From: Candidatus Dormiibacterota bacterium
GTDB lineage: Bacteria > Chloroflexota > Dormibacteria > Dormibacterales > Dormibacteraceae
Direction: 5' to 3'
Length of the DNA stretch: 64,000 nt
Assembly (NCBI GenBank): GCA_963790575.1
Contig: CAWBPD010000026.1
Location: 264,411 to 328,410, forward strand
Below the pieces are notes generated by a model. That model saw only the letters and a program-made list of their open reading frames with translations, was not told the origin of the DNA and did not search any database. Position numbers and translations under genes: made by a program. This document shows positions 8,709 to 60,131 of this stretch, piece by piece. How positions within the stretch are numbered: position 1 is the stretch's first letter; every line of letters begins with the position of its first letter.

Positions 8709-10060
8709 CCGGGCGGAGCGGGGGGGAGTGCCAGGATGAGGGGCTTCTCGAGCAGCGAGCGGACCTCGCCCAGGAACTGCGCCGCCGTCTGCCCGTAGAA
8801 GACCCGATGATCACAGGAGAGCGTCATCCGCATCCCGGAGCCGATCGCGACCTGGCCGTTCTCGACCAGCGGGACCTGCTTGATCTGGCCCACCGCCAGG
8901 ATCGCCGACTCCGGCGGGTTGATGATCGCCTCGAACTCGTCCACCCCGTACATGCCGAGGTTGGAGATGCTGAAGGTGCCGCCCGAAAGGTCGGCGTCGG
9001 AGGGTCGTCCGGCGCGGGATCGCTCGATCGCCTGGCGGGTGTCGAGCGAGATCTGGATCACGTCCTTCTGGTCGCAGTCGTGGACCACCGGCACCAGCAG
9101 GCCCATGCCCTCGGCCGGAGGCACCGCGATGCCGATGTTGACGGCCCGCTTCCGCTCGAAGTGGTCCTCCACCCAGCTGGCGTTGACCTCCGGGAACCGG
9201 GTCAACGCGATCGCGACCGCGCGCGTCACGAAGTCGGTGACCGTCACACGCTCCGCCGCCGGGACCGAGTCCTTGAGCTGACGGCGAAGCGCGACCAGCT
9301 CGTCGACCCGTGCCTCCACCGTGACATAGAAGCTGGGCACGGTGCTGCGGCTGAGCGCCATGCGCTTGGCGATCGTCGCCTGCATCCGGGTCGGCCGCAC
9401 CACCTCGGCGGGCTCGGTGGGTCGGGGAGGGGCGGTCCGGGCCGGCGCCCCCGCGGCCGCCGGAGCCGGGGCCTGGGCCGGAGCACCCTGCGCCGCCTCC
9501 GCCGCCCGCTGGACATCCTCTTTCACGATCCGGCCGCCCGGGCCGCTGCCCCTCACGCGGGACAGGTCGACCCCGTTCTCGCGCGCCAGGCGCCGGGCCA
9601 GCGGCGAGGCGCGCACGCCCTCCGGAAGGCGCTCCTCGCCGGCGCCGCCCCCGGCCGCTGCCGGCGCCGGTGCGGCCTCGGTGGTTGCCGGGTGCTGTGT
9701 CTCCTCACCCGCGGGCTCGGGTTCCTGAGCCGGAGCCGCCTCCACCTTCGGCTCCTCCGCCGCCTCCGCAGTCGACTCCTCCGCCTTCGGTTGCTCCGCC
9801 GGTGGTGCCTCCTCCTGCGGCGCCTCTTTGGCGTCCCCGATGCGGGCGATGAGGTCTCCCACCGGGACCGGTTTCCCCTGGTCGACGACGATGTGCAGGT
9901 ACCCCGAAGCCTCCGCCTCGAGGTCGAAGCTCGCCTTGTCCGACTCCACCTCGGCGAGCACGTCGCCCCGCTTCACCTGGTCGCCCTCTTGGACCTTCCA
10001 GGTGAGCACTGTGCCCTCCTCCATGGTGTCGGAGAGCTTGGGCATGTTCACATCGGCCAT
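8705..10060 (-). CDS. Dihydrolipoamide acyltransferase E2 of a 2-oxoacid dehydrogenase complex, with one lipoyl domain.
   Basis: MADVNMPKLSDTMEEGTVLTWKVQEGDQVKRGDVLAEVESDKASFDLEA is a lipoyl-Lys motif. A Pro/Ala-rich linker follows, then a PSBD (LARRLARENGVDLSRVRGSGPGGRIVKEDV) and a catalytic domain ending ...LSCDHRVFYG. The true start at 10060 is internal to ORF 8705..10267. Confidence 0.9.
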   Translation of the reverse strand: MADVNMPKLSDTMEEGTVLTWKVQEGDQVKRGDVLAEVESDKASFDLEAEASGYLHIVVDQGKPVPVGDLIARIGDAKEAPQEEAPPAEQPKAEESTAEAAEEPKVEAAPAQEPEPAGEETQHPATTEAAPAPAAAGGGAGEERLPEGVRASPLARRLARENGVDLSRVRGSGPGGRIVKEDVQRAAEAAQGAPAQAPAPAAAGAPARTAPPRPTEPAEVVRPTRMQATIAKRMALSRSTVPSFYVTVEARVDELVALRRQLKDSVPAAERVTVTDFVTRAVAIALTRFPEVNASWVEDHFERKRAVNIGIAVPPAEGMGLLVPVVHDCDQKDVIQISLDTRQAIERSRAGRPSDADLSGGTFSISNLGMYGVDEFEAIINPPESAILAVGQIKQVPLVENGQVAIGSGMRMTLSCDHRVFYGQTAAQFLGEVRSLLEKPLILALPPAPPG

Positions 10061-14129: not shown

Positions 14130-14927
14130 TCAGCGGATCGGAAAGGCGACGTCGCAGACCTCCTCATCCGGCGCCGCGCCTTCCGGGGTGGCGCCGTCGC
14201 GGTAGACCTCTCGGGGCGGCCCCAGGCTGACCCGGCCGCGAGCGTCGATCCACCGCTCGACCGCGTCGTACGCCGACAGGATGTGGGGCCACTGCAGGTG
14301 CGCCGCCGTGACCTTGACGTAGGCCTCCCGGTGCGCGGGTTCAAGCCGCGTCTGCGCCGAGGCGGTCGCGACCGGCAAGCACACCTCGACGGGACCGTCG
14401 CTGTCCTCGTTGACTTCCCCGTGGAATGCCACGAACAGCTCACCGGCGGCTCCCCCGTGCGCTCCGGCCGACCTCCGGAGCAACGTCTTGGCGCCGATGA
14501 TCGTGGCCGGCAGCCCCTGCAGATAGGTCGCCCGCTGCTCGGTGAGGACGGTCTGCCCGGGCACGGTGCGCTCTCGCACGTCGAAGGCCTCGAGCGATGC
14601 CTCGCCGCAGGCCAGGCTCTGCCGCACCCGTCTTGCGAGCTCGCGCTGGGAGGCAAGGCGCCGTTCGACCTCCTCCCAGTAGGCCCCGATCAGGCGGGCA
14701 CCGTCGTCGCCCGGGGTGACCACCACCCTCGACACCTCGGACAGGGGCATGTCGAGCCGCCGCAGCGCGACGATCAGCCGCGCCGTGAACAGTTGCTCCT
14801 CCCGATACCAGCGGTAGCCGTTCTCGGGGTCCACCCGGGCCGGGGACAAGAGACCCAGCCGCTCGTACAGCCGCAGCGCCTTCATCGAGAGCCGCGACCG
14901 CCGGGCGAAGGTGCCGATCGCGAGCAT
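14130..14927 (-). CDS. MerR-family transcriptional regulator with a C-terminal GyrI-like effector-binding domain (BmrR type).
   Basis: An N-terminal HTH is present (MLAIGTFARRSRLSMKALRLYERLGLLSPARVDPENGYRWY), followed by a coiled-coil linker and a C-terminal ligand-binding domain. The preferred start is the internal Met at 14927. Confidence 0.75.
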   Translation of the reverse strand: MLAIGTFARRSRLSMKALRLYERLGLLSPARVDPENGYRWYREEQLFTARLIVALRRLDMPLSEVSRVVVTPGDDGARLIGAYWEEVERRLASQRELARRVRQSLACGEASLEAFDVRERTVPGQTVLTEQRATYLQGLPATIIGAKTLLRRSAGAHGGAAGELFVAFHGEVNEDSDGPVEVCLPVATASAQTRLEPAHREAYVKVTAAHLQWPHILSAYDAVERWIDARGRVSLGPPREVYRDGATPEGAAPDEEVCDVAFPIR

Positions 14928-14955
14928 TCGCTCGCCAGGCTCGCTCACACGTCCG

Positions 14956-15468
14956 TCACGTGGGGCCACTGGGGTCGGCGAGCCGGAACGCGAGCTCGGT
15001 CTCCCACGCGTTCATATCCGGCTGCTCGCGCGGGTCGGTCAGATACAGCTCCAGCCGTGCCCCCCAGCGCTCGCCCTCCGGCGACTGGGACACGTCCCAT
15101 GTGAGTCCGTGCTCATCGGCCCAGCGCAGGAGCCTGGCCGTCGCGTCCATCAGCGTGCTGGGATGACCGACGTGCCGCAGCGTCGCGTACCGGCCCGCCG
15201 GCAGCACGCCGGCATGCACGCGTTCGTCACCCTCGACCGGCTGTGTCGTCGCCACGCCCGCCTCGACCTCGAGCCCGCGCTCCATGTCGATGACGTTGTA
15301 CTTCCAGAACGGCGGCCCGGCCGGCTGGCCGCCATGCCGGCCGAGCCACCCGAAGACCTCCTGATTCAATGGCGGCACCACCTCGCCGAGGTTCTGCATC
15401 GTGACCTTCGCCGTGATCGCGGCGTAGGGCTGGGCCGAGCGTTCGGTGATCGTCGGTTCCGTGCTCAT
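14956..15468 (-). CDS. GyrI-like small-molecule-binding domain protein.
   Basis: This 170 aa protein (FWKYNVIDMERGLEVEAGVAT...ARLELYLTDPRE) resembles GyrI/SbmC-like effector-binding proteins. It lies directly upstream of the MerR gene. Confidence 0.6.
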   Translation of the reverse strand: MSTEPTITERSAQPYAAITAKVTMQNLGEVVPPLNQEVFGWLGRHGGQPAGPPFWKYNVIDMERGLEVEAGVATTQPVEGDERVHAGVLPAGRYATLRHVGHPSTLMDATARLLRWADEHGLTWDVSQSPEGERWGARLELYLTDPREQPDMNAWETELAFRLADPSGPT

Positions 15469-15501
15469 GCCGACAGCGTGAAGCCTGCCCTTGGGACAAG
15501 G

Positions 15502-16185
15502 TCAAGCGGTGTTTTGCCGGCGCCGTCCGGGGAGCGACGACCAGCCGCTGCTGGTGAGCGCGTAGAAGACGGCGATCGCGAGATACAGGAACGCGGCCAG
15601 GTAGGGGGAGAGCAGGCCCAGCGCCGCGCAGCCCGCGTAGGCGAAGACCCCGACCCAGGCGCGGACCCCCTCCCGGCGGGCGAAGGGTGCGTCGAAGGGG
15701 GCGAGGAAGAGGTGGGGGACTCGCACCAGGTGCCTCCAGAGCCCCACCCAGGGGAGGGTCATGAGGACGCCCGTGAGCCCGTAGAGCACCGCCGCCACCC
15801 GCCCGTTCCACCCCGGATCGTGGAGATGGGCGGCGAGGATCGCGGTCGGGAAGGGGAGGAAGGCGACGAACAGGAGCAGGGAAAGGTTCCCCCACTGCAG
15901 GGTGCGGTCGGTGGCCCGCAGCCGCTCGAAGAAGGCGTGGTGGTTGAGCCAGATGATGCCGATGGTGAGGAAGCTGGTCAGGTAGGCCAGGTAGGCCGCC
16001 CACTGATGGACCAGCGTCAGAAAGAGGGATCCGTGGGCCGGCACGTCGGCGTGAAGGTCGAGCACCAGCAGCGTGATCGCGATCGCGAGGACGCCGTCGC
16101 TGAACGCCTCGGTGCGCGAGGTCGCGGAGAGGCGGAGGCCCTCGTCGGTGACGGCGGCCGGCCGGCTGGAGTCGTCGTCGCCCAT
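15502..16185 (-). CDS. DUF1211 / TMEM175-family membrane protein (putative K+ channel).
   Basis: The signature RTEAFSDGVLAIAITLLVLDL is present and a second repeat follows. There are multiple transmembrane helices. Confidence 0.7.
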   Translation of the reverse strand: MGDDDSSRPAAVTDEGLRLSATSRTEAFSDGVLAIAITLLVLDLHADVPAHGSLFLTLVHQWAAYLAYLTSFLTIGIIWLNHHAFFERLRATDRTLQWGNLSLLLFVAFLPFPTAILAAHLHDPGWNGRVAAVLYGLTGVLMTLPWVGLWRHLVRVPHLFLAPFDAPFARREGVRAWVGVFAYAGCAALGLLSPYLAAFLYLAIAVFYALTSSGWSSLPGRRRQNTA

Positions 16186-16363
16186 GATCCTGGGTCCAGG
16201 ATCGTACGCCGGAAACTGCGGTCTCCCGCCCTCGGCTCATCCCTCCGCCCCCAGCTGGTAGGCGGTGACCGTCGGATGCATCACATTAGCGCCGGCTCGT
16301 GCACGACCCGCACCCTCCAGGACCCTGGCCTAGCGACCGCGCACCGTCGGCTTCTGAAGCCGA

Positions 16364-16861
16364 ATGTGGCAATGTGATCCAGCGCGACTCCAGGACGGGT
16401 CGCGACGCCCTGCGGGAGATGAAGTTGAGATGCCATGGTGGGGAACGGTCCTGATCGCGTTGGGTGCTGCCCTCATCGGGGTCTTCTGGCGAGCTGGTTT
16501 TGAGGAGTGGCGTGACTTCCGCGGTGCCCGTCGCGTCGTGGCCGGCGAGCTGTCACGAGCGGCTGCGGCGCTGCGCGCCATCGAGCGCGAGGGGGCAGCG
16601 GGCGTGCATCTCCCCACGGTGCTGAGCACCGAGGCGTATCGGGAAACCAGGCTGGTTCTGGCGCGATACCTGCCCGGTCCTCTTTGGACCGATCTCGAGC
16701 ATGTCTACGACCGCGTCCAGGCGCTGGAGCACGAGCTTGGAGGCCCCCTTCCGGACGCCGAGATCGAGGACCTGTGGCGCCAGGCTGACACCGTCGCGCA
16801 GAAGCTGCGCCATCAGCGGGTGTTCGGGGCATGGAGCCCGAGGCGGCGACTCCGTGGATAG
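16364..16861 (+). CDS. Hypothetical small membrane protein. The start is more likely the MPWWGT at about 16430.
   Basis: There is a single N-terminal transmembrane helix (WWGTVLIALGAALIGVFW), then a soluble region. No known domain was found. Confidence 0.4.
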   Translation: MWQCDPARLQDGSRRPAGDEVEMPWWGTVLIALGAALIGVFWRAGFEEWRDFRGARRVVAGELSRAAAALRAIEREGAAGVHLPTVLSTEAYRETRLVLARYLPGPLWTDLEHVYDRVQALEHELGGPLPDAEIEDLWRQADTVAQKLRHQRVFGAWSPRRRLRG

Positions 16862-17180
16862 GACGGTGGCCATCGTCGCTCATCCGACGTTCACGAGGGC
16901 TGTTCTCAGGCTCTCGATCGCTCGGCGAAAGGAGGTCTATATCGCTTTGCGAGCCATCGAGCGTGGAGACGAGCTGCTCGAGCGAGACCAGGGCAACATC
17001 TACCATTTCGATCTCGCGTGGGAACCCGGTCGCCGGCTGCGGCTGCTCCTGGCCCGAGGTGTGAAGGGGGACCGGGAGGTCGCCCTGGCGGTCAACGCCT
17101 TCTGGATTGACGCTGGAGGCATGACCTCAGCCACCCGGATCACCGCAGCCAGGCGTGCCTGGGAAACGTGGGCCCCTTGA
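16854..17180 (+). CDS. Putative type II toxin of the RelE/ParE-superfamily (HigB/gp49-like), with a GTG start.
   Basis: This is about 109 aa (...IALRAIERGDELLERDQGNIYHFDLAWEPGRRLRLLLARGVKGDREVALAVNAFWID). It lies immediately upstream of, and overlaps by 13 nt, an XRE-HTH gene, which is the HigB-HigA gene order. The family assignment comes from pattern and context only. Confidence 0.45.
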   Translation: MDRTVAIVAHPTFTRAVLRLSIARRKEVYIALRAIERGDELLERDQGNIYHFDLAWEPGRRLRLLLARGVKGDREVALAVNAFWIDAGGMTSATRITAARRAWETWAP

Positions 17181-17548
17181 TCCGGATGCCGGCTTGCTCG
17201 TATAACATGCATGGTATGGCGGGGCTGAATCACGGGGCTGTGCCCGAGAGGGCCATCTCGCTGGATGAATTGATCGATCGTGAGAACGAGCAGCATCCAG
17301 GGCTACGGGACGCGGTTGAGCTCGGCGTCCAGCGGCGGCGCTTCCTGAGCAACCTGGCGAGCCTGCGTGAGGCGCATGGTTTCAGTCAGCAACAGGTCGC
17401 CGTGCGGATGGGCACAGGGCAGCCGGCGGTGGCCAGGCTCGAGAGTGGTGCCATCGATCCGAAATTCTCCACGCTTCAGAAGTACGCGGGCGCCATTGGT
17501 CTGCGGATCGAGCTGATGGACGGGGCGGCGCCTTCGAGAACGGATTAG
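17168..17548 (+). CDS. XRE-family HTH protein, putative HigA-like antitoxin.
   Basis: The HTH_XRE motif is LREAHGFSQQQVAVRMGTGQPAVARLESGAIDPKFSTLQKYAGAIGLRIEL. Confidence 0.7.
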   Translation: MGPLIRMPACSYNMHGMAGLNHGAVPERAISLDELIDRENEQHPGLRDAVELGVQRRRFLSNLASLREAHGFSQQQVAVRMGTGQPAVARLESGAIDPKFSTLQKYAGAIGLRIELMDGAAPSRTD

Positions 17549-17577
17549 CCTCTGGATCCGATTCACGATCCGCGCCG

Positions 17578-17703
17578 GCGTGCACCGACTGCCGGCACTC
17601 GGGCGGGGCAGGGTCACCGGGGTGCACCGACTGCCGGCACTCGGGTGGGGCAGGGGCACCGGCGTGCACCGAGTGCCGGCACTCGGGCGGGGCAGGGTCG
17701 GTC
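17578..17703. repeat. Three tandem units of about 41 bp each, carrying the palindromic core CCGA(G/C)TGCCGGCACTCGG. This is a REP-like element lying between convergent genes.
   Basis: The units read gtgcaccgactgccggcactcgggcggggcagggtcaccgg, ggtgcaccgactgccggcactcgggtggggcaggggcaccgg, and cgtgcaccgagtgccggcactcgggcggggcagggtcggtc. The same core recurs at 48150..48225. Confidence 0.8.
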
Positions 17704-18694
17704 AGTCGAGGTGGGAGGGCAGCCCGAAGGCTCCGAACGCGGTCCCATCAAGGAACGAGGTGATCTCGTGGATCTGCCCACCCCGGAACCCGAACACGTT
17801 GATCGACCACGCCCGATACGCGCCGGCGCCCTCGGGACGGAGGTAGAGGGCGGCAGCCGGCTGCCCGTTGGCGCTGGTCGAGAGGTGGCGCCAGGCCCCG
17901 CAGCTTCCGAGCGGGACCCGCACGGCGAAGTCCATCACCGCCGCCCGTCCGCGATACCAGTGTGGGAGCGGCGGCATCGACCAGGTGGCGTCCTCGGTCA
18001 GCAGCGAGGTCAGGAGGGCCGCGTCGCCTCGCTCGAGTGCGGCGCAGTAGCGGTTCACGACCTCGCGCAGGCGGGCGTCGTCCAGCCGCCGCGGCGTCGG
18101 CTGCAGGCTGTGCTCGGGGGCGCGGGCGGCGAGTGCTTTGCGCGCCCGCTCCAGCGCGCTGTTGACGGCGCCCACCGAGGTGCCCAGCATGGTGGCGATC
18201 TCGGCCGCTGAGAGCCCGACCACCTCGAAGAGGAGCAGCGCGGCACGCTGGTTCCCGGTCAGATGCTGGAGTGCGGCCACGAACGCGAGTTCCACCGCCT
18301 CTCGCTGTTCGTAGCGGGCTTCGGGGCTGAGCTGGCCCGCGGCCGCCTCAGCATCCGGGTAGGGGCCGAGCCAGGCGACTCCCTCCAGCGCGGTGTCGTC
18401 CACCACGGCGTGGTCGCTCGGAGGGCCCAGGTCGGCCGGCAGTACGTGCGGCTTGCGGGTCCTGATCGCGTCGAGGCAGGTGCGAGTGGCGACGGCGTAC
18501 AGCCAGGAGCGCCAGGATCCGCGCCCCTCGAACCGATGCCGGCCCCGCCAGGCGCGGAGCAACGTCTCCTGCACCGCGTCTTCGGCGTCGTGTATCGAGC
18601 CCAGCATCCGGTAGCAATGGGCACGCAACTGCGGCCGCAGGGGCTCCACCAGTCGCTCGAACACGGTCGCGTCGCCCAGGTCCGTTCCGACCAT
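17702..18694 (-). CDS. ECF41-type RNA polymerase sigma factor (SigJ-like) with a C-terminal SnoaL-like extension.
   Basis: Sigma region 2 is present (LLRAWRGRHRFEGRGSWRSWLYAVATRTCLD). Region 4 is present (LTGNQRAALLLFEVVGLSAAEIATMLGTSVGAVNSALERARKAL). A C-terminal extension of about 100 aa follows (YCAALERGDAALLTSLL...). The internal Met at 18694 was chosen as the start. Confidence 0.8.
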   Translation of the reverse strand: MVGTDLGDATVFERLVEPLRPQLRAHCYRMLGSIHDAEDAVQETLLRAWRGRHRFEGRGSWRSWLYAVATRTCLDAIRTRKPHVLPADLGPPSDHAVVDDTALEGVAWLGPYPDAEAAAGQLSPEARYEQREAVELAFVAALQHLTGNQRAALLLFEVVGLSAAEIATMLGTSVGAVNSALERARKALAARAPEHSLQPTPRRLDDARLREVVNRYCAALERGDAALLTSLLTEDATWSMPPLPHWYRGRAAVMDFAVRVPLGSCGAWRHLSTSANGQPAAALYLRPEGAGAYRAWSINVFGFRGGQIHEITSFLDGTAFGAFGLPSHLD

Positions 18695-18754
18695 CAGCGG
18701 GGAAAGTTCACTCACCGCGATGAGTATGGGGGCGCGGCGCCGTCTTGTCCTTCG

Positions 18755-19279
18755 ATGGCACTCCATGACCGTGACTACAGCTACGATCCCGAGCGGGCAG
18801 CGCTGCTCGAATTCCTCTCCGCGCAGCGGCAGAGCGTGCTCGCCATCCTTGACGGACTGGCGGAGGCGGCGTTGCGCATCTCCGTGATCCCTTCCGGCTG
18901 GACCCCGCTCGGTCTCGTCGAGCACCTGACGGGAGCCGAATTCTTCTGGATCCAGGTTGTCCTGCTCGGCACGCGTGGCCCCATCCCTCCCCTCGACGAC
19001 TCGGCCGAGGTCGGGGAGTGGGGTCCCTTCCTCACCGATCGCCCGGTTTCCGAGGTGATCGATGAATACCGCCGGCAGTGCGCCGAGAATGACGCTGCAC
19101 TCCGTGACCTACCACTCGAGACTGCTCCCCGCTTCCGGCCCCCGTGGGCGGGACCGGGGGAGGCCACCGACCTGCGGTGGATTCTGCTCCACCTGATCGA
19201 GGAGACGGCTCGGCACGCCGGTCACCTGGACATCGCCCGGGAACTGCTCGACGGGCGGACCGGCCTGGGTCCGCGGTAG
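18755..19279 (+). CDS. DinB-like / DUF664 (mycothiol-dependent transferase-like) four-helix-bundle protein.
   Basis: MALHDRDYSYDPERAALLEFLSAQRQSVLAILDGL...LEHLTGAEFFW...ARHAGHLDIARELLDG is typical of the DinB_2/DUF664 family. It is divergent from the ECF41 gene. Confidence 0.7.
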   Translation: MALHDRDYSYDPERAALLEFLSAQRQSVLAILDGLAEAALRISVIPSGWTPLGLVEHLTGAEFFWIQVVLLGTRGPIPPLDDSAEVGEWGPFLTDRPVSEVIDEYRRQCAENDAALRDLPLETAPRFRPPWAGPGEATDLRWILLHLIEETARHAGHLDIARELLDGRTGLGPR

Positions 19280-19380
19280 TCCACCCGTCTGACTTCCGCT
19301 TTCGCGTGAAAGTGGGCTCATCGGCCCCGCCATGGTGCCCCTCTCGCGTGAAAGCGGGGTTATTGGTCGCGCCTCGGATA

Positions 19381-19590
19381 ATGGAGCGCATGGTCACGGT
19401 CACCATCCTCCCCGACCGCGCGGTGCGCGAAGTCGAGGCGGGAACCGTTGCCGAGACGCTGCGCCGTCTCGGGCTGCACCAGGACGCCCACCTCGTCGTG
19501 CGCGGCGAGGACATCTTGACCGGGGACACCCGCCTGCGCGACGACGATCGGGTGGACGTGCTCCCCGTGATCTCGGGAGGGCGCCGCTGA
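19381..19590 (+). CDS. ThiS/MoaD-like ubiquitin-fold sulfur-carrier protein whose C-terminus is ...VISGGRR.
   Basis: This is about 69 aa (MERMVTVTILPDRAVREVEAGTVAETLRRLGLHQDAHLVVRGEDILTGDTRLRDDDRVDVLPVISGGRR). Its stop overlaps the ATG of the downstream PP-loop thiolase gene (TGATG). Confidence 0.65.
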   Translation: MERMVTVTILPDRAVREVEAGTVAETLRRLGLHQDAHLVVRGEDILTGDTRLRDDDRVDVLPVISGGRR

Positions 19591-20543
19591 TGTACTGCCA
19601 CACCTGCCGCAAGCCCGCCAACGTAGAGATCCGGCGCAGCCGGATCGCCTTCTGCGCCGGCTGCTACCCCGATTGGTTCCGCAAGCAGGTCCAGGAGCGC
19701 ATCGATCACGACCGCATGTTCCGGCGCGCCGACAAAGTGCTGGTCGCGGTCTCGGGCGGTAAGGACAGCCTCGCCCTCTGGCATGCCTTGACGGAGCTCG
19801 GCTACCAGGCCGACGGCATGTACATCCGGCTCGGGATCGGCGCCTACTCCCGGCGCTCGCAGGAGAAGTCGGAGGCGTTCGCGGCTCAGCACGGCCTCAC
19901 GCTCCACCAGGTCGATCTGGAGCGCGAGGAGGGCTTCGACGTGCCGGATCTGCGCGACGCGCGGAGTCACAAGCCCTGCGCCGCGTGCGGTGCCGTGAAG
20001 CGGTACCACTTCAACAAGCTGGCCTTCGACCTCGGCTACGACGTGGTCGCCACCGGCCACAACCTGGACGACGAGGCAGCCACCCTGTTCGGCAACATCG
20101 TCCACTGGAACATCGACTACCTGGGCCGCCAAGGGCCGGTACTGGAGAGCACCCACCCGGGCCTGGTGCGCAAGGTGAAGCCGCTCTACCGCCTCTCGGA
20201 GCGGGAGACCGCCGCCTACAGCGTGATCTCACGCATCGACTACATCCTGGAGGAGTGCCCGATGGCCAAGGGCGCGAAGTCGCTGGCCTACAAAGACCTG
20301 CTCAACGGTCTCGAGGAGCAGCAGCCGGGCGCCAAGCATCGCTTCCTGGTCGGGTACCTGAAGGGCGGCCGCAACGCCGTCGCCCAGGGTACGTTCGATC
20401 CCTCCACCGAGCTGCACCCGTGCGAGCGCTGCGGCCAGCCCGCCACCGGCAGGATTTGCTCCTACTGCCGCCTCGCCGAGCGCGGCCGGCAGACGCGCGA
20501 GCGGCTGGCCGGCAAGTACGCGGCGATCCCGATGGCGAAGTAG
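19590..20543 (+). CDS. ttuA: TtuA/TtcA-family tRNA 2-thiolation PP-loop ATPase (with N- and C-terminal CxxC zinc fingers).
   Basis: MYCHTCRKPANVEIRRSRIAFCAGCY is zinc finger 1. The PP-loop is VAVSGGKDS. Central cysteines are present (PCAACGAVKRYHF ... ECPMAKGAKS). The C-terminal zinc finger is HPCERCGQPATGRICSYCRL. Confidence 0.85.
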   Translation: MYCHTCRKPANVEIRRSRIAFCAGCYPDWFRKQVQERIDHDRMFRRADKVLVAVSGGKDSLALWHALTELGYQADGMYIRLGIGAYSRRSQEKSEAFAAQHGLTLHQVDLEREEGFDVPDLRDARSHKPCAACGAVKRYHFNKLAFDLGYDVVATGHNLDDEAATLFGNIVHWNIDYLGRQGPVLESTHPGLVRKVKPLYRLSERETAAYSVISRIDYILEECPMAKGAKSLAYKDLLNGLEEQQPGAKHRFLVGYLKGGRNAVAQGTFDPSTELHPCERCGQPATGRICSYCRLAERGRQTRERLAGKYAAIPMAK

Positions 20544-20544
20544 C

Positions 20545-21324
20545 TTGACCTACTTCGAGCGGCTGCGAGCCGGGATCGCGCGCACCGGCTCGCACCTCTG
20601 CGTAGGCCTGGACCCGGATCAGGATCGGATCCCCGGCGGCGCCGAGGGTGCCTACCGCCACTGCTCGCGGGTGATCCGGGAGACGCTCGCGCACACCTGT
20701 TGCTACAAGCCCAACTCGGCGTTCTGGGAGCAGTACGGGCCGAACGGCCTGGCCGCGCTGCGCCGGCTGCGCGAGGAGGCACCGCCGGAAGTGCCGTTTC
20801 TGTACGACGCCAAGCGCTCGGACGTCCCCAACACGATGGCGCGCTACGCCGAGGCGGCGTTCGGGGCGCTGGGCATGGATGCGATCACCTGCCAGGCGTA
20901 TCACGGAGCCGACTCGCTGCGCAAGCTGACTCGATACGCCGACCGGGGCGTGTACGTCGTCTGCCGGAGCTCGAACCCCGGCGCCTCCGACCTCCAGTAC
21001 AAGGAAGCGGACGGAGCCCCCTTCTATCAGCGCGTGGCCGAGCTGGCCGCCTCTGTCGACGAGGCTCACAACGTCGGTCTTGTCATGGGGGCCACGGCGC
21101 CGCCCGAGATCGAGGAGGTGCGGCGGCGGTCGGAGCTCCCGTTCCTGATTCCCGGCGTGGGGGCGCAGGGGGGAGACCTGGAAGCCTCGGTCCGCGCCGC
21201 GCTGTCCGACGATCTGACCTCTTGTCTGATCTCCGCCAGCAGGTCGGTGCTGTACGCCGACTCGCCAGGAGCGGCGGCGGCCGAGCTGGCGGCCGCCATC
21301 CGGGCCGCGCTGACACCGGCGTGA
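20545..21324 (+). CDS. pyrF: Orotidine 5'-phosphate decarboxylase (type 2), with a TTG start.
   Basis: SHLCVGLDPD...FLYDAKRSDVPNTMARYAE... and the overall length fit the long-form PyrF family. Confidence 0.8.
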   Translation: MTYFERLRAGIARTGSHLCVGLDPDQDRIPGGAEGAYRHCSRVIRETLAHTCCYKPNSAFWEQYGPNGLAALRRLREEAPPEVPFLYDAKRSDVPNTMARYAEAAFGALGMDAITCQAYHGADSLRKLTRYADRGVYVVCRSSNPGASDLQYKEADGAPFYQRVAELAASVDEAHNVGLVMGATAPPEIEEVRRRSELPFLIPGVGAQGGDLEASVRAALSDDLTSCLISASRSVLYADSPGAAAAELAAAIRAALTPA

Positions 21325-21794
21325 GAGCGGCGGTCCGCGCGCTGCTGCTCGACCCCACCGACCGCCTCCTGTTGCTCTGCGGGCACGACCCCTCGCGTCC
21401 CGAGCGGGGCCGGTTCTGGTTCACCGTCGGCGGGGGGCTGGATCCGGGGGAGGTGCCGGAGACGGCGCTGCGACGGGAGGTCGTCGAGGAGGTGGGAATC
21501 CAAGACCTCGAGGTCGGGCCCCCGGTCTGGCTGCTCCGCAACCGTTTTGTCTTCAACGGGCGAGCGGTCGACCAGGAGAACACCTTCTACCTGGTGCGGA
21601 CCGGGGAGACCGCCGTCGACCGCAGCGGGCAGGACGAGGTGGAGCAGGAGTCGATCGTGGGCGCGCGCTGGTGGACGCTGGCCGAGCTGCGCACGACCCC
21701 GGACCGGCTCTACCCGGTGCCGCTGGCCTCAGCGCTGACGGCGTTGCTCCATGAGGGCCCGCCGTCCGCGCCGATCCGCCTGCCCGACGAGTAG
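21321..21794 (+). CDS. NUDIX hydrolase. Its GTG start overlaps the pyrF stop.
   Basis: The Nudix box is GGGLDPGEVPETALRREVVEEVGI. The upstream part of ORF 20700..21794 lies inside pyrF and was discarded. Confidence 0.75.
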   Translation: MRAAVRALLLDPTDRLLLLCGHDPSRPERGRFWFTVGGGLDPGEVPETALRREVVEEVGIQDLEVGPPVWLLRNRFVFNGRAVDQENTFYLVRTGETAVDRSGQDEVEQESIVGARWWTLAELRTTPDRLYPVPLASALTALLHEGPPSAPIRLPDE

Positions 21795-22515: not shown

Positions 22516-23572
22516 ATGGGGTATCCATTTGAGTGCAGCGCCCCCAAGATCTAGTAATCGCTCCGGGGCGCGATGAGCTCGTAGTACGGATGAGGATCGG
22601 TGGCAACGGCCTGCTCCACGAGCCGGTACCAGAGCAGCCCGCGAGCCTTGGAGGCTCGACGGTTGAAGCGGAACGTGTACTCGTCGAGGTAGTACCCGAG
22701 CTGACGGGCGTCCAGGCCGTTCTGGATGGTTCCGGCGAGCCAGCGTTTGAGCAGCGACGCGACTCGGTGGACACCCGGCAGCAGTTCGTGCGCCAACGAG
22801 CCGGAGTGCTCGATGGTCCGCTGATCGACGGTCACTCCGACCTTCTCGCCGAAGTCCTGGTAAAGGGGGTCGCCATCCGTCTGCAGGATCGATCCCGGGG
22901 CCACGTTCGTTTTCGCGAAGCTCACCAGGTCGAGCTTTCGACGCGTCCGGTCGATGACCGACATCCGAATGCGACCCAGCCCTCGCATCTGAGCCGCGGC
23001 ATGCTCGACCGCGATCACGACCTCGGCCTTGTTGTAGTACCGCGGCGTATTCATTCCGGGCGTCCGGCCACCGATGAAGGTGCAGTCCATCTCGACCACT
23101 CGGCCTGGACCTCCGAGCTTCTCGCGGTCCGGACGCACCATGGCGCGGCGCAGTTTGTGCATCCAGGCCCAGGCGGTCTGGTACGAGCCGAACCCGAGGA
23201 CGCGCTGCAGACCCAGGGCCGAGACGCCGTTCTTCTGGGCGCAGATGAACCACATAGCCGCGAACCAGGTCGGGAGCGGCAGGTGCGAACGGTGGAAGAT
23301 CGTGCCCGCGGTTGCCGACGTCTTGCGCCCACAGCGCCGGCACATCCATCGGGGCCCGGCCACTTTCCAGGCGTCCCCGTGCCCACATGCCGGACACACG
23401 AAGCCAGCCTTCCACCGCACACGGGCCAGGAACTCGACGCAACTGCCCTCGTCCGGAAACCATCGCTCGAATGCCTGCCAGCCTCCGGGGTAGTCGCGAC
23501 CGGCTTGAGGGTGATCTTCATCTGCCACGAGCACAAGATACTGGGGCTACTGCATTCAAGCAGATACCCCAT
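22516..23572 (-). mobile_element. IS1595-family insertion sequence, copy 1 (1057 bp).
   Basis: The ends are ATGGGGTATCCATTTGAGTGCAG and CTGCATTCAAGCAGATACCCCAT, which are imperfect inverted repeats. It is flanked by ACATATGT(T). It contains transposase ORF 22551..23534 on the minus strand (327 aa, GTG start), which has an N-terminal zinc finger (FVCPACGHGDAWKVAGPRWMCRRCGRK) and an IS1595 DDE domain. Confidence 0.85.
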
Positions 23573-23580
23573 ACATATGT

Positions 23581-24637
23581 ATGGGGTATCCATTTGAGTG
23601 CAGCGCCCCCAAGATCTAGTAATCGCTCCGGGGCGCGATGAGCTCGTAGTACGGATGAGGATCGGTGGCAACGGCCTGCTCCACGAGCCGGTACCAGAGC
23701 AGCCCGCGAGCCTTGGAGGCTCGACGGTTGAAGCGGAACGTGTACTCGTCGAGGTAGTACCCGAGCTGACGGGCGTCCAGGCCGTTCTGGATGGTTCCGG
23801 CGAGCCAGCGTTTGAGCAGCGACGCGACTCGGTGGACACCCGGCAGCAGTTCGTGCGCCAACGAGCCGGAGTGCTCGATGGTCCGCTGATCGACGGTCAC
23901 TCCGACCTTCTCGCCGAAGTCCTGGTAAAGGGGGTCGCCATCCGTCTGCAGGATCGATCCCGGGGCCACGTTCGTTTTCGCGAAGCTCACCAGGTCGAGC
24001 TTTCGACGCGTCCGGTCGATGACCGACATCCGAATGCGACCCAGCCCTCGCATCTGAGCCGCGGCATGCTCGACCGCGATCACGACCTCGGCCTTGTTGT
24101 AGTACCGCGGCGTATTCATTCCGGGCGTCCGGCCACCGATGAAGGTGCAGTCCATCTCGACCACTCGGCCTGGACCTCCGAGCTTCTCGCGGTCCGGACG
24201 CACCATGGCGCGGCGCAGTTTGTGCATCCAGGCCCAGGCGGTCTGGTACGAGCCGAACCCGAGGACGCGCTGCAGACCCAGGGCCGAGACGCCGTTCTTC
24301 TGGGCGCAGATGAACCACATAGCCGCGAACCAGGTCGGGAGCGGCAGGTGCGAACGGTGGAAGATCGTGCCCGCGGTTGCCGACGTCTTGCGCCCACAGC
24401 GCCGGCACATCCATCGGGGCCCGGCCACTTTCCAGGCGTCCCCGTGCCCACATGCCGGACACACGAAGCCAGCCTTCCACCGCACACGGGCCAGGAACTC
24501 GACGCAACTGCCCTCGTCCGGAAACCATCGCTCGAATGCCTGCCAGCCTCCGGGGTAGTCGCGACCGGCTTGAGGGTGATCTTCATCTGCCACGAGCACA
24601 AGATACTGGGGCTACTGCATTCAAGCAGATACCCCAT
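23581..24637 (-). mobile_element. IS1595-family insertion sequence, copy 2. It is 100% identical to copy 1 and lies in direct tandem with it.
   Basis: It is base-for-base identical to 22516..23572 and contains transposase ORF 23616..24599 (minus strand). It is separated from copy 1 by the 8 bp ACATATGT and followed by ACATATGTT. Confidence 0.85.
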
Positions 24638-25311: not shown

Positions 25312-26235
25312 GTGAGCGACTCCCGCCGGCTCCGTCTCCTCTGTGTCCACGCCCATCCCGACGACGAGTCGAGCAAGGGGGCGGCGACCATGGCCAAATA
25401 CGCCCGCGAGGGCGTCCGGGTCATGGTCGTCACCTGCACCGGAGGGGAGCGGGGGAGCATCCTCAACCCGGCGCTGGAGGGCGACGAGACGCTGGCCGCC
25501 AACATGGGGGAGGTACGGCGTCGCGAGATGGAGCGGGCCGCGGCGATCCTCGGCGTCGAACATCGCTGGCTCGGCTTCGTCGATTCCGGTTTCACCCGCG
25601 ATGGCCCCGAGCCGGTGGCGCTGCCCGAGGGCTGCTTCGCGCTGCAGCCGCTGGAGGTGACGGCGGGGGCGTTGGTGCGGATCCTCCGCGAGTTCCGGCC
25701 GCAGGTCATGACGACCTACGACGAGAGCGGCGGCTACCCCCATCCCGACCACCTGATGACCCACCAGGTCTCGATGGCGGCGCTGAGGGCGGCCGCCGAC
25801 GCCGAGCAGTACCCGGACGCCGGGGAGCCCTGGCAGGTCTCGAAGCTCTACTACAACGGCGGGATGTGGCGGGGTGGCCTGCTCAAGATCCACCAGGCGA
25901 TGCTCGACCGCGGCCTCGAATCGCCGTTCGCGGAGATGCTGGAGTGGTTCGCGAAGATGCCGGTGCGTCTGCGGCCGCCCACTACCACCTACATCGACTG
26001 CGCCCGGTACTTCCCGATTCGCGACGCCGCCCTCAAGGCGCACGAGAGCCAGGTCGACCCCGAGGGTCGGTGGTTCAAGGCGCCGATGGACCTGCAACAG
26101 GAGATGGCACCCAACGAGGAGTTCACGCTCGCCGGCACCACCATCCCCGCCACGCTCCCGGAGACCGACCTGTTCGCCGGTCTGCGGGACCCCTCTCAGG
26201 CCTCAGCGGAGCGCGAGGCGGTCCAGGCTTCATAG
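25312..26235 (+). CDS. mca: Mycothiol S-conjugate amidase / LmbE-like (PIG-L) zinc deacetylase.
   Basis: LCVHAHPDDESSKGAATMAKYAREGVRVMVVTCTGGERGSILNP closely matches the N-terminus of the Mca/MshB family, including the HxDDE zinc motif. Confidence 0.8.
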   Translation: MSDSRRLRLLCVHAHPDDESSKGAATMAKYAREGVRVMVVTCTGGERGSILNPALEGDETLAANMGEVRRREMERAAAILGVEHRWLGFVDSGFTRDGPEPVALPEGCFALQPLEVTAGALVRILREFRPQVMTTYDESGGYPHPDHLMTHQVSMAALRAAADAEQYPDAGEPWQVSKLYYNGGMWRGGLLKIHQAMLDRGLESPFAEMLEWFAKMPVRLRPPTTTYIDCARYFPIRDAALKAHESQVDPEGRWFKAPMDLQQEMAPNEEFTLAGTTIPATLPETDLFAGLRDPSQASAEREAVQAS

Positions 26236-35463: not shown

Positions 35464-35606
35464 GCCGGCTGGAACCCACCCCGCGCACACGGACATTCCG
35501 GCCCGTTTCCCGGCGGCGGGACCCAATTTCGCGCGCGAAGTGGGACGTTTCCTGGCAATGAGCGTCGCGCCCACGCGAAACTAGTCCCAAAGGAGGCTGC
35601 GAACGG

Positions 35607-48233: not shown

Positions 48234-49049
48234 TCAGGTGGCGACGCCCAGTTCCCGCAGCTGGTCGTTGAGCGTGAGCTTGCGATCGGTGGCGTCGCTC
48301 CGCCACCCGATGATGAGCCCGCACGCCAGCTGGTACTCGCCCGCCGGGAAGGTGCGCGTACGTGTCCCCGGGACCACGATCGCGCCTGGCGGGACCTCAC
48401 CCCGGTGCTCGACCGGAGAGGGTCCGGTGACGTCGATGACGGGAGTGGAGCCGGTGAGGACGACGTTGGCGCCCAGCACCGCCCATTCCCCCACCACCAC
48501 GCCTTCCGTGACCACCGCGCGCGAACCAATGAAACAGCCGTCCTCGATGACCACCGGCCGCGCCTGCACGGGCTCCAGCACGCCCCCGATGCCCACCCCG
48601 CCTGCCAGGTGGACGCCGCTGCCGACCTGCGCGCAGGACCCGACGGTGGCCCAGGTGTCGACCATGGTGCCGGCGCCCACGCGGGCTCCGACGTTGACGT
48701 AGGACGGCATCAAGATCACGCCGCGTTCCAAGTGTGAGCCGTAGCGCGCCACCGCCGGGGGCACCACCCGCACGCCGGCGCCCTCGTAGTCGTGCTTGAG
48801 CGGGATGCGGTCCCGGTACTCGAAGGGCCCGGTCTCGATGGTCTCGATCTCGTAGAGCTTGAAGTAGAGGAGGATCGCCTTCTTCACCCATTCGTTGGCC
48901 ACCCACCGGCCAGCATGCTTCTGGGCGCTGCGCAGGCTCCCGTCATCGAGGCCGGCGATCGTCCACTCCACCGCCTCCTTGTCCTGCCCGCCCTGGGCAT
49001 AGGCGGCTTCGATACGAGCCTGGAGTTCGTCCGGGTCGGGGTCAGTCAT
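48234..49049 (-). CDS. dapD: 2,3,4,5-tetrahydropyridine-2,6-dicarboxylate N-succinyltransferase.
   Basis: Left-handed beta-helix hexapeptide repeats are present (VGAGTMVDTWATVGSCAQVGSGVHLAGGVGIGGVLEP...), with a DapD-like N-terminal domain. Confidence 0.8.
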   Translation of the reverse strand: MTDPDPDELQARIEAAYAQGGQDKEAVEWTIAGLDDGSLRSAQKHAGRWVANEWVKKAILLYFKLYEIETIETGPFEYRDRIPLKHDYEGAGVRVVPPAVARYGSHLERGVILMPSYVNVGARVGAGTMVDTWATVGSCAQVGSGVHLAGGVGIGGVLEPVQARPVVIEDGCFIGSRAVVTEGVVVGEWAVLGANVVLTGSTPVIDVTGPSPVEHRGEVPPGAIVVPGTRTRTFPAGEYQLACGLIIGWRSDATDRKLTLNDQLRELGVAT

Positions 49050-50343
49050 CTCCGACGAGCCTATCCGGTCGGTCCACCGCGAGCTCCCGGTAGCGGTACA
49101 CCGCCTGCTCGGGCGCGCGGGCCAGCGTCAACGTGCCGCGGTCGGTGTATTCGGTGTCCTCCACCACGCCCTCGCGCCGCAGCTCCTCGATCACCCCCTC
49201 GCGACCGTAGGGGACGAGCAGGCGCACCGGTACCAGCGCGCGCTGATCCGCTTCTGCCAGCGCCGTGTCCAGCTCGTCGAGGCCGGCGCCCGTCTGCGCC
49301 GAGATGGGGACGACCGTGCCGTACCGGACCCGGAACCCGGGCAGTACCCGGCGCAGGCCGGCCACCCCGAGGAGGTCGATCTTGTTGAGCGCGACCACGC
49401 GCGGTACCTCCCCCGCGCCCAGCTCCTGAAGCACCTGGTCGACGGTCGCCGCCTGATCGAGGGCGGAAGCGGCGCTCGCATCGACCACGTGGAGCACGAC
49501 ATCGGCTTCCGTCACCTCCTCCAAGGTGGAGCGGAACGCCGCGACCAGGTCGGTGGGCAGGTTCTGGATGAAGCCGACGGTGTCGCTCAACAGCAGCTCG
49601 CGGCCGCTCGCGGTCCGGTGCCGGCGCGTGGTCGGGTCGAGGGTGGCGAACAGCTGGTGCGCGGCGGGCACGCCGGCACCGGTCATGGTGTTGAGCAGCG
49701 TGGACTTCCCGGCGTTGGTGTAGCCCACGATGGCGACCGTGATCAGGTCGGCCCGGTGGCGGCCCTGGCGCTGCTGTTCGCGGCGGGCCCGCACCTGCTC
49801 CAGCTCGCGCTCCAGGTCCCGGACCTGACGCCGGACGCGGCGGCGCTCGATCTCGGTCTGCTGCTCGCCGGGGCCACCGCGGGTTCCGCGGCCACCCATC
49901 TGTCGGTTGACGTCGTAGGCGCCCACCAGTCGCGGGAGCCAGTGGCGCAGCCGTGCCACCTCGACCTGCAGGCGACCGTCACGGGTGCGCGCGTGCAGCG
50001 CGAAGATCTCGAGAATGATCTCGGTCCGGTCCAGCACCGGCACCGCCAGCTCCCGCTCCAGGTTCCGCTGCTGGCGTGGGGAGAGGTCCTCGTTGCAGAC
50101 CAGCAGATCGAATTCCAACTCGCCGCGCCGGGTGCGGATCTCCTCGACCTTGCCCCGACCGCAGAATAGTGCCGGGTCGATCGCCGCCCGCCGCTGGAGG
50201 TCGGTGCAGACAGGATCCGCACCCGCGGTGCGCACCAGCTCGGCGAGCTCTGTCATCTGCTCCTCAAGCCGGGCCGGCTCGGTGCCGGGCAGCAGGACGC
50301 CCAGCAGGTAGGCGCGGTCGCGCCGCTCGGCGGTGTTCAGCAA
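49042..50343 (-). CDS. hflX: GTPase HflX.
   Basis: An HflX N-domain is present (AYLLGVLLPG...ELVRTAGA). The G domain is VAIVGYTNAGKSTLLN...DTVGFI...NKID. Confidence 0.9.
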   Translation of the reverse strand: MLNTAERRDRAYLLGVLLPGTEPARLEEQMTELAELVRTAGADPVCTDLQRRAAIDPALFCGRGKVEEIRTRRGELEFDLLVCNEDLSPRQQRNLERELAVPVLDRTEIILEIFALHARTRDGRLQVEVARLRHWLPRLVGAYDVNRQMGGRGTRGGPGEQQTEIERRRVRRQVRDLERELEQVRARREQQRQGRHRADLITVAIVGYTNAGKSTLLNTMTGAGVPAAHQLFATLDPTTRRHRTASGRELLLSDTVGFIQNLPTDLVAAFRSTLEEVTEADVVLHVVDASAASALDQAATVDQVLQELGAGEVPRVVALNKIDLLGVAGLRRVLPGFRVRYGTVVPISAQTGAGLDELDTALAEADQRALVPVRLLVPYGREGVIEELRREGVVEDTEYTDRGTLTLARAPEQAVYRYRELAVDRPDRLVGDD

Positions 50344-51371: not shown

Positions 51372-51380
51372 GAAAGGGGT

Positions 51381-56904: not shown

Positions 56905-56999
56905 CCCGGGTGGGGAGCCTGCGGAGTTTCGTGGGGTGGGGCTCGGCATCGCTGCGGCCACTTTACCCGGCCGGGGTTGGGCGCCCGGCGACGACGCGC

Positions 57000-57293
57000 T
57001 CAGACGGGGTGCCGCACCTCGACCAGCAAACGGATCCCGGTGCGCTCCTCACCATCGATCGAAATGTCGATGAACGAAGGGATGCAGACGATCTCGATCC
57101 CCCCCGGCGCCACATACCCCCGAGAGATGGCAATCGCCTTGACCGCCTGATTGATCGCCCCCGCGCCGATGGCCTGTACCTCCACCCTGCCTTGGGTGCG
57201 GATGACGCCCGCGATCGCACCCGCGACGGCGACCGGCTTCGAGGAGGCCGACACTTTCAGCACCTCGACCGCAGGCCGGCCGTTCTGTGTCAT
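57000..57293 (-). CDS. spoVS: SpoVS-family protein.
   Basis: It is 97 aa (MTQNGRPAVEVLKVSASSKPVAVAGAIAGVIRTQGRVEVQAIGAGAINQAVKAIAISRGY...) with strong SpoVS similarity. The RBS is GGAGAAG. Confidence 0.85.
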   Translation of the reverse strand: MTQNGRPAVEVLKVSASSKPVAVAGAIAGVIRTQGRVEVQAIGAGAINQAVKAIAISRGYVAPGGIEIVCIPSFIDISIDGEERTGIRLLVEVRHPV

Positions 57294-60061: not shown

Positions 60062-60131
60062 CACCACGATTATCGAGGGGCCGGCGGCTCCACCCCGCAG
60101 TAGCTCACGCCTGTGAGAGGATGCGGCCGTC

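Follow-up and report, generated by a model that had tools for sequence, protein, structure and literature searches.

A stretch of 64,000 nucleotides (nt) from Candidatus Dormiibacterota bacterium (contig CAWBPD010000026.1, positions 264,411-328,410, forward strand; G+C content 70%), here called the window, carries the overlapping genes ttuB and ttuA, which encode a ubiquitin-like sulfur carrier of small size and a tRNA thiolase. The closest relatives of the window were metagenome-assembled genomes of Candidatus Dormibacterota. The locus, from a Candidatus Dormibacterota bacterium, was read as a ttuB-ttuA(-pyrF-nudix) operon in which TtuB would be made as a precursor and cut after its Gly-Gly pair, and in which the repeats upstream of ttuB would form a terminator for the preceding gene. 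Taken as a whole, with the processing and terminator parts included, this reading was judged moderately probable. The features of the locus were as follows.

18746-19279, + strand: MST/DinB gene, stop codon at 19277-19279 (Pfam PF04978, E = 5e-38).
19296-19373, + strand: tandem duplication of 42 base pairs (bp), terminator-like (repeat search, RNA folding, terminator scan).
19377-19382, + strand: GATAAT, a -10-like hexamer with a putative promoter role (comparison across Dormibacterota-like loci).
19390-19590, + strand: ttuB, ThiS/MoaD-family ubiquitin-like sulfur carrier, 66 amino acids (aa) (Pfam ThiS PF02597, homologues, TtuB profile match).
19576-19587, + strand: GGA GGG (the Gly-Gly codons) followed by CGC CGC (the Arg-Arg, or RR, tail) (sequence, junction comparison).
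19588-19592, + strand: TGATG, one-base overlap of the ttuB stop and the ttuA start (sequence, locus comparison).
19590-20543, + strand: ttuA, predicted PP-loop, [4Fe-4S]-type tRNA 2-thiouridine synthetase, 317 aa (Protein Data Bank (PDB), NCBIfam, Pfam, motif positions).
20545-21324, + strand: pyrF, orotidine-5'-phosphate decarboxylase subfamily 2 (NCBIfam TIGR02127, 213 bits; Pfam OMPdecase).
21324-21794, + strand: Nudix hydrolase gene, start approximate (Pfam NUDIX, E = 9e-19).

The TtuA protein was compared with thiolases in the PDB and was closest to Thermus thermophilus TtuA (5gha_A; E = 3.6e-91, 309 bits, residues 1-298), ahead of P. horikoshii TtuA (244 bits), the U34 thiolase NcsA (92 bits, 2.9e-25) and MnmA (26 bits). 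The NCBIfam models ranked in the same way, with TtuA (Pyrococcus) at 272 bits, NcsA at 122 and TtcA at 57. The PP-loop motif SGGxDS was present as S55-GGKDS (Pfam PF01171, E = 2.2e-9), and C130, C133 and C223 aligned with the cluster cysteines of T. thermophilus TtuA, which predicts binding of a [4Fe-4S] cluster. Zinc finger 1 (C3, C6, C22, C25), zinc finger 2 (C278, C281, C290, C293) and K137 were also found, and all of these landmark residues fell at Thermus numbering. The TtuA_LIM_N domain of Pfam was weak in the window protein (E = 0.005) and clear in the relative L084. The 317-aa protein aligned end to end with the 321-aa Thermus enzyme and carried no additional domain. No entry identical to the window TtuA was present among the database contigs searched, and its genomic context was drawn from relatives: 80 loci, taken from species-representative genomes, that carry relatives of TtuA, and 85 loci (L001-L085) in later comparisons.

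The small open reading frame (ORF) upstream matched the Pfam ThiS profile PF02597 (E = 2e-7, 31.9 bits, cut-off 22.5); the match ended exactly at the second Gly, leaving the RR outside the domain. When a profile was made from this protein and 32 homologues, its top match was T. thermophilus TtuB (5ztb_E, E = 4.9e-9), aligned to the last residues ISGG, and its second match was P. furiosus SAMP2 (5lda_B). In the window ttuB lies directly 5' of ttuA and overlaps it, and a ThiS-like ORF was likewise found upstream in nearly all of the 80 related loci. A first-pass annotation, made from the window sequence without database searches, had described a ThiS-like carrier and a TtuA-type thiolase, and the Pfam, NCBIfam and PDB matches agree with it. 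On the basis of these matches, the gene pair is orthologous to Thermus thermophilus ttuB and ttuA, and by the same token the thiolation target is predicted to be a tRNA uridine, U54.

The ttuB reading frame on the + strand ends in ...DVLPVISGGRR, with its stop codon TGA at 19588-19590, and the A of this stop is also the A of the ttuA ATG at 19590; the GG-RR ending and the TGATG overlap were thus confirmed as first described. The Gly-Gly pair is not C-terminal in the TtuB gene product, as RR lies beyond it, and would become terminal only after processing. Comparison with relatives indicated that such a tail is common. The motif PVISGG was invariant in 33 sequences, namely the window protein and 32 database homologues (62-100% identical), and was followed in those homologues by 0 to ~40 unconserved residues; one only stopped at Gly-Gly. 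When the first ISGG was taken as the point from which tail length is measured in the loci, tails were 0 aa long in one, 1-2 aa in eighteen and 3-65 aa in thirteen of the 32 Dormibacterota-like loci, the window being one of these. Among the 36 Nitrospirota loci, a stop directly after Gly-Gly was found in 12 and tails of 1-32 aa in 24, and in Thermaerobacter-like Bacillota the single locus, L039, had a one-residue tail.

Tails also differed between very close genomes. The window ends in RR, the same-species contig L086 in TQTPRNG (the core being 100% identical), and the closest sister species, L006 and L007, in R and GDVLSHLP, respectively. P(V/A)ISGG was strictly conserved across four phyla. 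On these sequences, tails are the rule in the TtuB family, and their sequence and length are unconstrained. The first-pass annotation had set its proposal of a maturation step against two other outcomes, a stop codon misplaced by sequencing error and homologues that uniformly end in Gly-Gly; neither was found, tails being present in 31 of 32 Dormibacterota-like and 24 of 36 Nitrospirota loci.

In Nitrospirota loci (for example L063, L070, L080, and L085 at ~9957-10000) the ttuB-ttuA spacer, or the stretch coding for the tail, held short tandem repeats, CACGTTTCACGCCT, present about twice, which in many species are translated as a tail like SPRFTPHVSRLTSQE. Nitrospirota species with a stop at Gly-Gly had a spacer of ~95 nt with inverted repeats (ggtttgttt...aaacaaacc). 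The spacer repeats may be an element that acts at the DNA or RNA level.

Two Actinomycetota loci, L046 and L084 (both from metagenome-assembled genomes labelled "Actinomycetes"), carried ThiS and TtuA in a single reading frame. The L084 fusion ORF (L084:9791-11044, 417 aa) contained ThiS (residues 9-64), TtuA_LIM_N (72-96) and PP-loop domains by Pfam. When this fusion was used for a database search, 119 of the 120 Actinomycetota clusters among the matches listed were in-frame TtuB-TtuA fusions (P0034-P0152), in which PVISGG was followed by a variable linker of 2-12 residues, its first residue mostly A, S or G, and then by M(K/R)CRRC. A few of the fusions had no internal Met and therefore cannot be mis-joined gene pairs; the contigs that carried fusions were up to 3.45 Mb long.

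The fusions also shared a motif near the C-terminus, ...S(D/E)EV(M/L)P(V/A)E(I/L)YG, which was followed by a few variable residues, was absent from the window TtuA and loosely resembled the TtuB end LPVISGG. In L084 a gene for a proteasomal ATPase (ARC/Mpa) lay ~0.9 kb downstream of the fusion gene, with one unannotated ORF between the two.

Taken together, the tails and the Actinomycetota fusions strongly imply that TtuB undergoes a maturation step that exposes its Gly-Gly, in agreement with the first-pass proposal. An invariant Gly-Gly pair with sequence that varies freely beyond it has the pattern of a cleavage site. Furthermore, when the Gly-Gly of the carrier is peptide-bonded to its own enzyme, adenylation and thiocarboxylation are impossible, so that processing would be needed. 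The enzyme responsible for maturation is most likely a JAMM/MPN+ hydrolase encoded in trans, by analogy with characterised systems. In Deinococcus radiodurans the JAMM protein DR0402 cleaves the MoaD-MoaE fusion DR2607 (PMC8832034); QbsE, which ends in GG-CF, is trimmed by QbsD, and CxnE, in which Gly-Gly is followed by 10 aa (SEAARAEESR), is trimmed by CxnF (PMC5925218). A Thermus JAMM mutant formed aberrant TtuB conjugates and had ~50% less thiouridine (PMC3980101).

The proposed sequence of events is as follows. A leaderless mRNA would start at ATG 19390 behind GATAAT, and ttuA would be translated by termination and reinitiation at TGATG, with GGAGGG serving as a Shine-Dalgarno-like element. 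Next, a protease whose gene lies elsewhere would cleave TtuB behind Gly-Gly; the most likely type is a JAMM/MPN+ enzyme with a housekeeping role and specificity for the ubiquitin-like fold. An unlinked E1-like enzyme of the TtuC/MoeZ type would adenylate and thiocarboxylate the exposed Gly. Finally, the free iron in the cluster of TtuA would receive sulfur from the TtuB thiocarboxylate (TtuB-COSH), for transfer to the target tRNA uridine, which would be U54 by orthology.

The first of these steps depends on the start of ttuB. The 69-aa carrier described initially can be read from an in-frame ATG at 19381; homologues and the GATAAT box favour ATG 19390, which is most likely the ttuB start, giving a protein of 66 aa with Gly-Gly at residues 63-64. 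GATAAT sits 7 nt 5' of ATG 19390. In ~28 of the 30 Dormibacterota-like loci compared, a -10-like hexamer (GATAAT, AATAAT, TAGCAT, CACAAT or TAGGAT) preceded the start of ttuB by 6-8 nt. The sequence GCGCCTC(A/G)GATAATG was unchanged in the window, L086, L006 and L007, and a generic sigma-70 scan upstream of ttuB gave no -35/-10 pair. This arrangement suggests that GATAAT is a -10 box and that the ttuB-ttuA mRNA is leaderless from ATG 19390, which would explain the dependence of ttuA on stop-start coupling.

Evidence consistent with such coupling was obtained from the junctions. In 31/31 Dormibacterota-like loci the ttuB stop was placed between -25 and +12 nt relative to the ttuA start, and TGATG was kept in L086 and L006 despite their different tails. 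Among 78 loci compared, the modal Dormibacterota junction was GGN GGN, 8 nt and ATG with TGATG, which yields a two-residue tail. In the window the Gly-Gly codons GGAGGG form a Shine-Dalgarno-like run 9 nt before the ttuA ATG, and relatives with longer tails had their own GGAGG-like run inside the tail near the ttuA start. The tail therefore reads as ttuB-ttuA spacer, which would be translated because the stop is kept where reinitiation takes place and because GC-rich DNA seldom offers a stop in frame; its residues (R, G, A, P, S) agree with this, and it would have no function of its own.

A programmed frameshift that would join TtuB to TtuA in the window was also considered, given that fusions occur in nature and that the frame of ttuA remains open upstream; the junction showed no evident slippery heptamer, and this candidate was set aside.

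Candidates for a linked protease or E1 enzyme were sought in the window and in the 85 related loci (1.28 Mb). The H-x-H...S-x-x-D motif scan of the window found no JAMM motif. Pfam analysis of the window genes revealed no plausible TtuB protease and no E1, the intervals 1-12 kb and 26-41 kb being judged by eye from translations; the sole peptidase domain in the window belonged to LexA, at 46.5 kb, and was of the S24 self-cleavage type. The Pfam families of the neighbouring genes in one Nitrospira locus and one Actinomycetota fusion locus were GH57, GalT, DnaJ, MTHFR and ARC/Mpa, with no protease or E1 among them. The idea of a linked protease was rejected for the window and the 85 loci after JAMM motif and profile scans, and that of a linked E1 after a search with MoeB, the profile scan and the MoeB search being described below; the initial observation that no protease is encoded nearby therefore stands.

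Several results weigh against the proposed reading. A local JAMM hidden Markov model, whose probe had been checked against solved JAMM structures, was run on all six-frame ORFs of the window and the 85 loci and found none but weak RadC-like matches, 5 kb away in two Nitrospira loci. A phmmer search of the same sequences with E. coli MoeB (a probe verified as identical to 1JW9_B) found no E1/ThiF-like protein. TtuA enzymes can use free sulfide in vitro, so that a TtuB-independent route is possible in principle (PMC6225789). The window TtuA did not reach the NCBIfam equivalog cut-off of model NF049949 (272 vs 450 bits), which is an archaeal, Pyrococcus-type model, the bacterial Thermus enzyme being a better match. 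The U54 target is drawn from orthology only, and 2-thioribothymidine at tRNA position 54 (s2T54) is described as a thermophile trait, whereas the record titles of the hosts considered here point to cold or temperate habitats. In several relatives the Gly-Gly codons read GGC GGC or GGT GGC, which match the Shine-Dalgarno sequence poorly, and the role proposed for Gly-Gly codons as a Shine-Dalgarno element, like the start of transcription, is inferred.

The main rival to a processed TtuB is that the tail is never removed. In this clade TtuB would then not act through a C-terminal thiocarboxylate; its role would be that of a partner, either structural or regulatory, or of a domain fused to TtuA, and sulfur would come to TtuA from free sulfide or persulfide at its [4Fe-4S] cluster. 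The lack of a linked protease or E1 in 85 loci, the tails of up to 65 aa and the stable in-frame TtuA fusions are compatible with this view, as is the finding that sulfide supports TtuA in vitro, a route that has been proposed for organisms without TtuB (PMC6225789). However, it fits the strict conservation of Gly-Gly poorly. P(V/A)ISGG is kept over four phyla and is the very end that is chemically used in Thermus TtuB, while the residues beyond it vary freely; this is the signature of a cleavage or activation site and not of an internal linker. The linkers of the fusions nearly always begin with a small residue (A, S or G), and MoaD-MoaE fusions of the same architecture need cleavage (PMC8832034). 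A TtuB that is never cut was considered unlikely.

A second alternative accepts that the tail is removed and assigns the cut to something other than a JAMM enzyme, such as a general carboxypeptidase or endopeptidase, a hydrolase of the cysteine-protease type, or a reaction assisted by E1 or TtuA. A JAMM gene was absent from every locus examined, and most Dormibacterota tails are of 1-2 residues, which an exopeptidase could remove. Against this, the fusions and the tails of 20-65 aa demand an endoproteolytic cut exactly after Gly-Gly whatever follows, the characterised prokaryotic cases cited above (DR0402, QbsD and CxnF) are all JAMM/MPN+, and the window TtuA has no extra domain. This explanation was given the same low probability as the preceding one, and a JAMM/MPN+ hydrolase acting in trans was preferred to both.

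The window pair agreed with the TtuA and TtuB families in every sequence feature examined but two, the Gly-Gly that is not terminal in the gene product and the score below the cut-off of the archaeal-type NCBIfam model. The Thermus thermophilus TtuA/TtuB system, which operates with TtuC and TtuD and makes 2-thioribothymidine at tRNA position 54 (5GHA, 5ZTB, 5B4E), has the same zinc fingers, PP-loop, three cluster cysteines and K137 as the window enzyme. Thermus TtuB has the same ISGG end but stops at Gly-Gly, whereas the window TtuB adds RR, and Thermus is a thermophile, whereas the relatives of the window are recorded in the databases as soil, lake and permafrost bacteria. The gene order in Thermus is ttuB then ttuA, as in the window, and the E1 and JAMM genes are not known to be linked to ttuB-ttuA there either.

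The closest logic is that of the D. radiodurans MoaD-MoaE fusion DR2607 and its protease DR0402, in which the carrier is extended to its partner, cleavage after Gly-Gly is required and the protease is encoded elsewhere (PMC8832034). It is a direct analogue of the Actinomycetota TtuB-TtuA fusions, with a different partner enzyme and pathway; the window itself has two separate, overlapping genes and no fusion. Another fused molybdopterin synthase of the MoaD-MoaE type is MoaX of M. tuberculosis. The QbsE/QbsD (thioquinolobactin) and CxnE/CxnF (chuangxinmycin) systems resemble the window in that the Gly-Gly of a ThiS/MoaD fold is masked by extra C-terminal residues, which have to come off before adenylation (PMC5925218). 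They differ in that their clusters encode a JAMM protease, whereas none was linked in the window or the 85 loci, and in that they belong to secondary metabolism, whereas the window pair would act in tRNA modification with a tail that appears to be unconserved, translated spacer. In the archaeal SAMP2/JAMM1 (P. furiosus 5LDA; HvJAMM1 of Haloferax) and eukaryotic Urm1-Ncs6 systems, a carrier with a VSGG end likewise serves a thiolase of the TtuA/Ncs6 family, and JAMM acts on the C-terminus; the window TtuA is nearer to bacterial TtuA than to NcsA/Ncs6 (309 vs 92 bits).

The region between the MST/DinB gene and ttuB contained two tandem copies of a 42-bp unit, at 19296-19331 and 19338-19373, which were 78% identical. 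The two direct repeats of the first-pass annotation are therefore real; the spacing of 44 bp given for them is not, since the period is 42 and the arrangement is a tandem palindromic duplication. Each unit has the palindromic core TTTCGCGTGAAA, and the copies also pair with each other as an inverted repeat. Folding of the repeat region as RNA gave -55.6 kcal/mol (z = -4.06), a stability reached by 0/200 shuffles, and the hairpin ends just before TTATTGG. A consensus scan identified a terminator-like site comprising 19342-19359 plus TTATTGGT, with a U-run that is short and interrupted. The duplication begins 17 nt past the MST/DinB stop codon and ends just before the -10 box.

The 42-bp unit was present in the same-species contig L086 and absent from L006 and L007. 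In L006 the position of the repeat is taken by a short unrelated spacer, and in L007 a different two-copy tandem palindromic unit, CCCCGCTGGTGCACCA(C/A)CGGGGCC, lies in the same place, ~100 nt upstream of ttuB. The hairpin-forming repeat thus appears to have been replaced, and not conserved, between sister species. From its position, folding and turnover, we infer that the duplication is a fast-evolving terminator or insulator hairpin for the MST/DinB gene and not a shared operator.

The first-pass annotation had suggested instead a site for a shared regulator, on which view a transcription factor bound at the repeats would control ttuB-ttuA together with the LLM/MFS pair of genes located at 35.5 kb. 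Two palindromic copies 42 bp (four helical turns) apart and directly upstream of a promoter are what such a site might look like, and the related motif that had been reported, TTTCGCGCGCGAAGTGGGA, does occur at 35527-35545 in a divergent intergenic region. A pattern drawn from both sites gave no chance matches, but it had been designed after both sites were seen and was discounted. The resemblance did not exceed chance: in gapped local alignment, the best match to the unit anywhere else in the window scored 21, lay at 31620 and not at 35527, and was reached by 78/100 dinucleotide shuffles. An ungapped search of the window allowing up to 3 mismatches gave 2 unrelated matches against 0.73 expected. 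The repeat motif was missing from all 85 loci L001-L085, the sister species L006 and L007 among them, and a very stable hairpin with a T-rich run right after a stop codon points to termination; co-regulation through these repeats was not borne out and is very improbable.

The notion that the RR tail is an artefact (a sequencing or assembly error or a mis-called stop, with the true end at Gly-Gly) had as its sole support the expectation that ThiS-family proteins end in Gly-Gly, and with tails in independent assemblies of dozens of species, and an intact tailed ORF with equal overlap logic in each of L086 and L087 (same species) and two sister species, it is refuted by the comparative data and has a negligible chance of being right.

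Precursor sulfur carriers are already known. No mention of a precursor or fused TtuB was found in the literature searched, and reviews present TtuA/TtuB as a system of thermophiles. A wider, speculative proposal, which we regard as unlikely in this general form, is that bacteria of at least four phyla, Dormibacterota, Nitrospirota, Actinomycetota and Thermaerobacter-like Bacillota (the last from L039 only), routinely make TtuB precursors, ranging from tails of 1-65 residues to a polyprotein, with no linked protease gene in any of them, and that a general, fold-recognising hydrolase cuts them after Gly-Gly whatever follows. If this were true, the hydrolase would correspond in bacteria to the enzymes that act on the products of ubiquitin-fusion genes, and tRNA thiolation could be controlled through the freeing of TtuB from TtuA. 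In a bolder version, the cut could be made by TtuA or by the E1 itself.

If processing occurs as proposed, a trans-acting, fold-specific C-terminal hydrolase would be a required part of tRNA thiolation in bacteria with tailed or fused TtuB, among them large groups of uncultured bacteria from soil and freshwater, and the tails and fusions offer many natural substrates with which to find it. If the orthologues from cold or temperate habitats act alike, 2-thiolated U54 would not be confined to thermophiles. For annotation, the ttuB start is probably at 19390, a tail after Gly-Gly should not lead to a pseudogene or error call, and the label of operator should not be given to the upstream repeat.

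Downstream of ttuA, pyrF starts 1 nt past the ttuA stop and is abutted by the Nudix gene, which is probably the final gene of the ttuB-ttuA-pyrF transcription unit. The order ttuB-ttuA-pyrF was kept in Dormibacterota, with the same arrangement in L001-L005. A riboswitch or known leader upstream of ttuB was considered and ruled out by Rfam scans, which found no RNA family in the whole window at gathering thresholds or in 19150-19700 at E <= 1.

In several Dormibacterota relatives (L001-L004) nadE lies immediately 5' of ttuB. In the window, ~5 kb of additional genes (14130-19279) separate the nadE position from ttuB; they encode MerR, GyrI-like and TMEM175 proteins, a protein without an assigned family, an XRE protein, an extracytoplasmic function (ECF) sigma factor with a SnoaL domain, and MST/DinB. 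At the equivalent spot, L005 has phage-like genes and one for a serine recombinase. The gene content upstream of ttuB thus suggests a hot spot for insertions. On the other side of the operon, two identical IS1595-family transposase genes lie in tandem on the - strand (22551-23534 and 23616-24599), with a repeat period of 1065 bp, each encoding a protein of 327 aa with zinc-ribbon and DDE domains.

Elsewhere in the window, two adjoining ORFs on the + strand at 51465-53291 (183 and 424 aa) had a strong coding signal in third-position G+C (GC3) and no Pfam match. Further tRNA-modification genes were found on the - strand within 49045-57048, namely miaA (50340-51380) and, at 55531-57048, a gene for a radical-SAM methylthiotransferase of the MiaB type; hflX and mutS flank them. 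Three families associated with mycothiol were also represented: the MST/DinB gene at 18746-19279, a PIG-L/LmbE deacetylase (MshB/Mca-like) at 25312-26235 and an MDMPI_N/DinB protein at 60117-60719. This set hints at a mycothiol-like low-molecular-weight thiol in the Dormibacterota genome.

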